Below, one piece after another: positions 20,694 through 22,032 of a stretch of 22,032 nt of DNA; the first letter of the stretch is position 1, and each line of letters starts with the position of its first letter. A model generated the notes under the pieces. That model had not been told where the DNA came from and made no database searches. It saw only the letters and a list, made by a program, of their open reading frames with translations. This DNA is from Escherichia coli (GTDB lineage: Bacteria; Pseudomonadota; Gammaproteobacteria; Enterobacterales; Enterobacteriaceae). The stretch lies in assembly GCF_003334255.1 (NCBI RefSeq), contig NZ_QOWU01000068.1; one strand, given 5' to 3'. The position numbers and the translations under genes are program-made.

Positions 20694-20999
20694 TTAGCGT
20701 GTAGTGGACGTGGTGGTTGAGGTGTTATGAGAACCGCCATCGCCACTGTCATTTGCTGCAACAACTGCCAACGTCGCCACACCAACAGCCGTTGCCACAC
20801 CGACAACTGTCGCCGTGCCGACAGCGCCAGCAGCCACGCCACCAGTGGTAGTAGCAGTCGTGGTTGCGCCGGTAGTGGTCGTTGTGGTGCCAGTAGTACC
20901 CGTCGTTGCCTCGGTCCCGTTTGTTGCTTCAGGGGCAGCAAACGCAGCTGGCGTCGTCAACATGAAGGCCATAAGGATTGCAGAAAGCTTGTGTTTCAT
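20694..20999 (-). CDS. gfcA: Threonine-rich group-4 capsule protein (YjbE-like)
   Basis: 101 aa from ATG at 20997-20999 (MKHKLSAILMAFMLTTPAAFA signal peptide), followed by a Thr/Gly/Ala/Val low-complexity tract. The ORF track extends 6 codons upstream. Confidence 0.88.
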   Translation of the reverse strand: MKHKLSAILMAFMLTTPAAFAAPEATNGTEATTGTTGTTTTTTGATTTATTTGGVAAGAVGTATVVGVATAVGVATLAVVAANDSGDGGSHNTSTTTSTTR

Positions 21000-21440
21000 A
21001 ACTTTTCCTTTATTCATCGCATGGACAATACGTACGCTTGAGATCAGGATTGTCTACTTTGAGTATAACATCCTTGTGAAATCTCCCTTTCCTCATACCG
21101 CTTGCACTATATACTGCGGGTAGGAAAGGCGCGCAGAGGGAAATATAAGATTGTTAACTATCCCCCTCTGGAAATACGACTTGTGAGCATAAGATAAATC
21201 TTAGCAAAATACAAATTAAAGATAAGGAAATTGTTACGAAAGCTATTAATTATTGTTGGTAATATAGTTTCAAGTGGTACTATAACTGGCTGTTAAATGG
21301 CATTTATAACTATTAGGTGCAGAGATATTCGCTTAAATGGATTAGTTTCTTTGTGGAAAAGTAACTGATGTTATAATGTATGATGTTGACTATTGCACTA
21401 TTCCAATAAAACCAGTCAGCTTTAAACAAGCAGCGTCATA
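21000..21440 (-). promoter_or_regulatory. gfc operon promoter / upstream regulatory region (AT-rich), also the cspH 3' flank
   Basis: About 440 bp of markedly AT-rich non-coding DNA upstream of gfcA with no IS sequence in it; contains inverted repeats CAGAGGG...CCCTCTG (about 21150-21187). Confidence 0.4.
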
Positions 21441-21653
21441 TTAAGAGAGATAAACATTTGCCGCTGTTGGTCCTCGCAGGCCATTTACGCGGCAAAATTC
21501 CACACGTAATCCTGGTATAAGCACTTCTGCGTCGCGGGGAGTGAATGCGGAAATATGGACCTGAACTTCTTTACGACCGTCGGAGGGGATAATGAATCCT
21601 TTGCCGCTTTTGCGATCAAAGGTTTTGACAATTCCTGTCATTTTACGGGACAA
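21441..21653 (-). CDS. cspH: Cold-shock-like protein CspH
   Basis: 70-aa cold-shock-domain protein ([26 protein letters not shown]...). The first codon in this sequence is TTG (plus-strand caa at 21651-21653), with SD AAGGA 6 nt upstream. Confidence 0.88.
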
Positions 21654-21938
21654 ACAAATTCCTTACTGAAAATACTGCGCTGCACTATACGGGGTTAATA
21701 AAATAAAGCCAGCGATATTTAAGACCGCCGGACGGCTAAAATAAAATTTGCTTAATCTCAATTATCATGCGTTAATAGCTGCGTCGGTTTGAAAGACAGA
21801 CAGCATACAAAGTAGTTTACTAAAGCAGTTCTCATTATCAGGCATTATCCCCTTCTTTTGAGTCTCTCTCCTGAACACTAAGTAGTTTCTGTATTAAAGC
21901 CCTGTTTGCCGAAAGGCCCAAAATGAAGGAAGTAAAAT

Positions 21939-21955
21939 ATGTCTAATAAAATGAC
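21939..21955 (+). pseudogene. cspG: cspG 5' fragment (first 17 nt, MSNKMT), interrupted by IS1
   Basis: ATGTCTAATAAAATGAC encodes M-S-N-K-M-T, the cold-shock protein N-terminus, divergent from cspH as cspG is in E. coli. The reading frame then runs straight into the IS1 terminal repeat and stops after 7 IS1-derived codons. Confidence 0.6.
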
Positions 21956-22032
21956 GGTGATGCTGCCAACTTACTGATTTAGTGTATGATGGTGTTTTTG
22001 AGGTGCTCCAGTGGCTTCTGTTTCTATCAGCT
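21956..22032 (+). mobile_element. IS1 insertion sequence, left (insA-proximal) end, truncated by the window edge
   Basis: GGTGATGCTGCCAACTTACTGATTTAGTGTATGATGGTGTTTTTGAGGTGCTCCAGTGGCTTCTGTTTCTATCAGCT matches the IS1 terminal inverted repeat and the start of insA (GTG GCT TCT GTT TCT ATC AGC = M/V-A-S-V-S-I-S) as I recall it. Junction position is ambiguous by 1-2 nt. Confidence 0.9.

Follow-up and report, generated by a model that had tools for sequence, protein, structure and literature searches.

The window analysed here, 22,032 nucleotides of an Escherichia coli contig (NZ_QOWU01000068.1), carries cspH between the gfc operon and cspG, with cspH divergent from cspG, in the same order as in strain K-12. 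The gfcA open reading frame occupies positions 20694-21017, according to the list of open reading frames. The window sequence retains 17 nt of the 5' end of cspG (ATGTCTAATAAAATGAC, 21939-21955, plus strand), directly followed by an IS1 end with the terminal inverted repeat GGTGATGCTGCCAACTTACTGATTTAG..., which runs to the end of the window (21956-22032). The junction between cspG and IS1, taken as one piece, is present in none of 5426 complete E. coli genomes. In K-12 MG1655, by contrast, cspG is intact and an IS1D copy lies between gfcA and cspH. The corresponding intergenic region of the window (21018-21440) contains no IS1, which leaves the sequence upstream of the gfc operon uninterrupted in this strain. 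A sub-threshold, 3'-truncated match to RF01766 (the cspA thermoregulator) at 21783-22032 on the plus strand represents the 5' leader of cspG, still present ahead of the gene that IS1 has disrupted; it is the sole match to this family and scores 19.3 bits against a gathering threshold of 78.

The cspH coding sequence lies on the minus strand at 21441..21653 and comprises 70 codons followed by a TAA stop (21441-21443); this assignment is based on the open reading frame list, the identity to K-12 b0989 and NCBIfam. The 70-residue product is 100% identical to K-12 CspH and matches the NCBIfam CspH equivalog NF012008 over residues 1-70 of the 70-position profile, with 176.1 bits against a cutoff of 141. 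The first codon is TTG (UUG in the mRNA; 21651..21653, minus strand), as supported by the annotated starts of K-12 and PGAP, by conservation and by homology. The start region, read on the minus strand, is cagTAAGGAatttgtTTGtcccgtaaaATGacagga. An in-frame TAA lies four codons 5' of the TTG, and a start further upstream is therefore impossible.

The sequence-only reading had proposed that the first codon of cspH is TTG, that a Shine-Dalgarno (SD) sequence AAGGA sits 6 nt upstream of it, and that no ATG occurs before codon 5, which lies 18 nt from the SD. All three points hold. On the plus strand, the letters are CAA at 21651-21653, ACAAAT at 21654-21659, TCCTT at 21660-21664 and CAT at 21639-21641. 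Read on the minus strand, AAGGA (21660-21664) is followed by the 6-nt spacer ATTTGT (21654-21659) and then by the TTG, and the Met5 ATG (21639..21641) is the first in-frame ATG, at 18 nt from the SD. In a scan of the mRNA against the 3' end of 16S rRNA, the sole site upstream of either candidate start with complementarity to the anti-SD is UAAGGA, at -12..-7 (21660..21665, minus strand), with a duplex energy of -6.1 kcal/mol. The same scan found no anti-SD complementarity in the interval between UUG and AUG5, so that no SD lies within 13 nt of the Met5 codon; a second SD-like element, CAGGAA, is present at +17..+22, 3' of AUG5. The spacing of 6 nt is within the 5-9 nt expected for an SD-led gene and is invariant in 32 sequences. 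The Met5 ATG is also invariant; it encodes a residue of the KMTG motif and is a possible secondary start.

The TTG start of cspH is already known, both from the reference annotation and from the literature, and is correct and ordinary. K-12 MG1655 has the same nucleotides throughout the leader and the gene, stop codon included, and its cspH (b0989, NP_415509.1; 1050963..1051175) is annotated as a 213-nt coding sequence beginning at the same TTG. PGAP places the start of the O157:H7 cspH at this TTG as well. Morita et al. (2025; PMC11648934) state that the initiation codons of cspF and cspH are UUG.

A 62-nt query around the cspH start was compared with the set of 5426 complete E. coli genomes. 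The region is present in 5398 of them, and 5355/5398 are 100% identical to the TTG version. When the start codon of the query was replaced by ATG or GTG, none of the 5426 complete genomes matched at 100%; with these substituted queries, 5393 records differed at one to three positions and 4 fell into a band of lower identity. The comparison of start codons across strains, suggested as a check in the sequence-only reading, thus gives TTG in the K-12 reference and no exact ATG or GTG version among complete E. coli genomes. The possibility that an ATG start was turned into TTG by a sequencing error or by a mutation confined to this strain was discarded, because K-12 and 5355 of the 5398 genomes are identical and the homologues all have TTG; nothing in the sequences compared favours it.

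The conservation of the start codon was further examined in a scan using one genome per species. It yielded 32 loci, comprising 30 complete cspH/F-type genes, one locus ending before the start (L034) and one cspG/I-type gene. The 30 complete genes represent Escherichia, Citrobacter, Salmonella, Klebsiella, Raoultella, Enterobacter, Kluyvera, Lelliottia and Superficieibacter. All of them (30/30) start with TTG, placed exactly 12 nt 5' of the invariant AAAATGAC, and an SD-like AAGG/CAGGAG is found at a fixed spacing 5' of the TTG. The cspG/I-type gene from the same scan has an ATG start. The 80 prophage and phage loci found in IMG/VR represent 27 distinct variants, and TTG is present in 27/27.

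Parsimony change counts were obtained for 32 sequences on a neighbour-joining tree. The T, T and G of the start codon show 0 changes each, and TTG is present in 32/32 sequences. The AGG core of the SD (-10..-8) also shows 0 changes, with A at -11 in 28/32, and both K4 and AAAAUG are invariant. Leader positions -24..-12 show 4-10 changes per site, and four-fold synonymous sites a mean of 8.1 changes, none of them with 0. As a rough estimate, a neutral first base would be expected to have undergone about 3-4 changes, supposing that one-third to one-half of changes are T-to-A or T-to-G transversions. The distances between SD, TTG and ATG are constant across the homologues, while the leader from the putative -10 to the SD varies from 28 to 32 nt, and neither indels nor stops were found between TTG and ATG in 59 distinct variants. 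Residues 2-3 vary radically among the cspH/F-type genes (SR, FQ, SL, TL, SC).

In an alignment of the initiation regions of the paralogues, the TTG of cspH occupies the same column as the ATG of cspG, cspB and cspI. The divergent cspG/B-type neighbour has ATG in 10/10 loci where its start falls within the flank. The simplest history would be that A changed to T once, in the common ancestor of the CspF/H clade, and that the T has persisted. We found no statement of the clade-wide invariance of UUG in the literature searched; it is a small addition to the known picture.

The divergent arrangement itself is conserved: in chromosomes of Escherichia, Citrobacter and Raoultella (loci L004-L022), a cspG/B-type gene with an ATG start lies head-to-head with a cspH/F-type gene with a TTG start. 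In lambdoid phages (e.g. L117, phage 2H10), the cspG/B-cspH/F pair adjoins the Q antiterminator gene. This distribution suggests that the two genes are transferred and retained together.

The conserved start codon is part of a longer nucleotide-conserved translation-initiation region, which extends from -11 to +39 (21615..21664, minus strand) and is marked by a deficit of synonymous changes; it corresponds to the 'downstream box' area of cspA-type genes. Third positions of the invariant-residue codons among codons 4-13 show a mean of 1.4 changes, compared with a mean of 8.7 for codons 14-66 (Mann-Whitney p = 1e-4), an approximately sixfold deficit. Individual codons are retained almost completely: ACA in 31/32, GTC in 31/32, AAA in 31/32 and TTT in 32/32 sequences. 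The same 5' stretch is nearly invariant in the cspG/B-type neighbours, and in cold-inducible csp genes it is the stretch that has been named the downstream box. That the first dozen codons are conserved at the nucleotide level is thus a trait of the family and not specific to cspH. Since the whole -11..+39 block is constrained, selection for a weak start is not separated here from other RNA-level constraints.

Within this block, a perfect palindrome, TGACAGGAATTGTCA, spans Met5/AUG5 (21626-21640, minus strand). The single-sequence fold of the start region is no better than that of shuffled sequences (z = -1.0). The consensus fold contains two weak hairpins, UUUGUC/GACAGG and GUCAAA/UUUGAY; both are devoid of compensatory changes, because their columns hardly vary. 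On these results, we do not attribute the conservation of the UUG to RNA structure. No Rfam family matched the cspH leader on the minus strand, and the leader does not qualify as a long thermosensing 5' UTR of the CspA type.

A putative -10 hexamer, TATAGT, is located 30 nt 5' of the TTG (21684..21689, minus strand). The sequence gTATAGT is kept in most of the genome homologues, with variants in L017, L021, L027, L028 and L029. It is this conservation that designates TATAGT as a candidate -10, since the consensus promoter scan called no minus-strand cspH promoter. The position of the hexamer suggests a short leader, of roughly 20-25 nt. For cspH of Salmonella, Kim et al. (2001) reportedly described a short leader and a downstream box located 12 nt 3' of the start codon.

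Published data on initiation and expression were consulted for cspH and for its close relative cspF. In INRI-seq (PMC9825163), the annotated starts of both genes have a value of 0 in all five in vitro replicates, with their transcripts present in the pool at 120 (cspH) and 88 (cspF) CPM. The in vivo Ribo-RET column of the same study is also 0 for both genes, and neither is included in its Table S3 of non-annotated starts. No N-terminal peptide of CspH or CspF is listed in the TRAINSPOTTER supplements, and the supplements of the ribosome-signature paper (PMC5576327) contain nothing on the starts of these genes. In the TetRP data (PMC4909307; Table S2, row 146), cspF is given a new ATG start at +12 (MTGIVK...) and placed in the class '4. 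multiple', which denotes signal at both sites; cspH is not in the TetRP list. The values for cspF are 0/94/75 at ATG+12 and 0/47/0 at the annotated TTG, which look like a handful of reads.

Over positions -2 to +38 the two genes have the same sequence; position -3 is T in cspF and G in cspH. Because of this identity, footprints centred on AUG5 would not be assignable to one gene or the other. This may affect both the TetRP call for cspF and the zeros in INRI-seq and Ribo-RET, and pipelines that drop multi-mapping reads may show depressed counts for cspH and cspF.

As given in a review table that cites Czapski & Trun 2014, cspF and cspH are expressed at a very low level and no protein has been detected; the link drawn in the sequence-only reading between the TTG and the low expression of cspH agrees with this entry. 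When their genes start with AUG behind a vector leader, FLAG-tagged CspF and CspH accumulate like the other Csps (PMC11648934), which indicates that the native expression signals are limiting, and not the stability of the proteins. UUG supports initiation at 10-100% of the level of AUG and is annotated as the start codon of about 3% of E. coli genes.

On the basis of these observations, cspH is probably translated mainly from the UUG at 21651-21653 under the direction of the SD, and its weak start probably contributes to its low output. The UAAGGA element, 6 nt upstream, would position the 30S subunit so as to place the UUG in the P site; SD and start codon are arranged as in the paralogues cspB, cspG and cspI, whose homologous codon is AUG. 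UUG pairs less well with the initiator tRNA and is a weaker, though canonical, start. The combination of a weak UUG and a weak promoter would account for the low output of CspH, and of CspF. The A-to-T change in the CspF/H ancestor would have been kept within the constrained block of about 50 nt that runs from the SD to codon 13, and Met5 would serve at most as a minor second start. The retention of Met5 is explained by its being a conserved residue of the family N-terminal KMTG motif. The anatomy, annotation, homology and conservation of the UUG start are directly observed; we infer that in vivo the initiator tRNA decodes UUG and that selection has favoured its weakness.

Two alternatives assign a larger part to the AUG at codon 5. 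SD-recruited ribosomes might start at both UUG and the AUG 12 nt downstream, giving isoforms of 70 and 66 amino acids in comparable amounts; this idea arises from the weakness of UUG and from the A-rich tract that precedes AUG5. The TetRP signal for cspF fits it, being present at both sites, higher at +12 and classed as 'multiple', as do the invariance of AAAAUG and the remark of the INRI-seq authors that A-rich sequences accompany SD-less starts (PMC9825163). The TetRP values at +12, however, come from two of the three samples and look like very low counts; cspH itself is missing from that list, and the identity of the two genes from -2 to +38 makes AUG5 footprints ambiguous. In addition, INRI-seq Table S3 contains no alternative start for cspH or cspF, and AUG5 is 18 nt from the SD. 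We regard comparable use of the two codons as possible but unlikely.

The more extreme version, in which Met5 is the real and only start, the TTG and the SD-like sequence form part of the leader and the annotated gene includes four codons too many, appears highly improbable. It draws on the greater strength of AUG as a start codon, on the cspF TetRP signal at +12 and on the poor conservation of residues 2-3, which would also fit a non-coding sequence. Against it, no SD is in range of AUG5, and the AGG core and the TTG are invariant at a fixed spacing while the leader 5' of the SD differs between homologues in both sequence and length. Moreover, the interval between TTG and ATG is free of indels and stops in the 59 distinct variants, the TTG is homologous to the ATG of cspG, cspB and cspI, and the invariant K4 is reported to be functionally relevant in CspA. 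The sequence-only reading had preferred a weak TTG start behind its SD, and this is supported by the reference annotation (K-12 b0989, PGAP) and by the comparative data. Its other option, a Met5 start without an SD, is judged unlikely as the sole start, while minor use as a second site is possible in view of the 'multiple' class of cspF in TetRP.

A further reading concerns regulation. The UUG might be an element of a clade-specific regulatory initiation region, with a switch between UUG and AUG5 that depends on temperature, IF3 or Csp proteins, or with conditional gating of initiation. It is prompted by the observation that UUG is never AUG or GUG across genera and phages, by the approximately sixfold synonymous deficit, by the palindrome (also written UGACAGGAAUUGUCA) and by the second SD-like element CAGGAA. 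We consider such a role doubtful, and quite unlikely on the present data.

The reference annotation of cspH is sound, and its unusual start codon does not stem from a faulty assembly; in this respect the locus has little discovery value. The wider pattern is of somewhat more use. The CspF/H clade, whose protein has reportedly never been detected, keeps UUG and a nucleotide-constrained initiation region across Enterobacteriaceae and lambdoid phages. This pattern suggests selection for low or conditional translation in the clade. Alleles in which UUG is changed to AUG would provide a concrete handle for detecting or phenotyping the CspF/H proteins.

Retention of a sub-optimal start codon that does not drift to AUG recalls infC, in which the AUU start is regulatory and serves IF3 autoregulation. 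The likeness is one of analogy only, as cspH uses UUG, one of the three canonical bacterial starts. Confirmed AUU starts are cited for both infC and pcnB. Closer relatives of cspH are cspA, cspB, cspG and cspI, which have a homologous SD-to-start geometry, the N-terminal MS.KMTG motif and first 10 or so codons conserved at the nucleotide level. Unlike cspH, these genes have ATG starts and long 5' UTRs with the cspA thermoregulator, and most of the aromatic RNP residues of their products are missing in CspF/H. The nearest counterpart is cspF. Its protein is about 76% identical to CspH, it adjoins the phage Q antiterminator, and it is the only member with an initiation-profiling call (TetRP, TTG and ATG+12, with TTG signal in one of three samples). 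Like cspH, it is divergently paired with a cspB/G-type gene; cspF of K-12 (b1558, Qin prophage) has the same AAGGA-N6-TTG arrangement, and K-12 and phage-borne cspF share with cspH the initiation region TTAAGGAAT-N-TTG-TCC-CGT-AAA-ATG.
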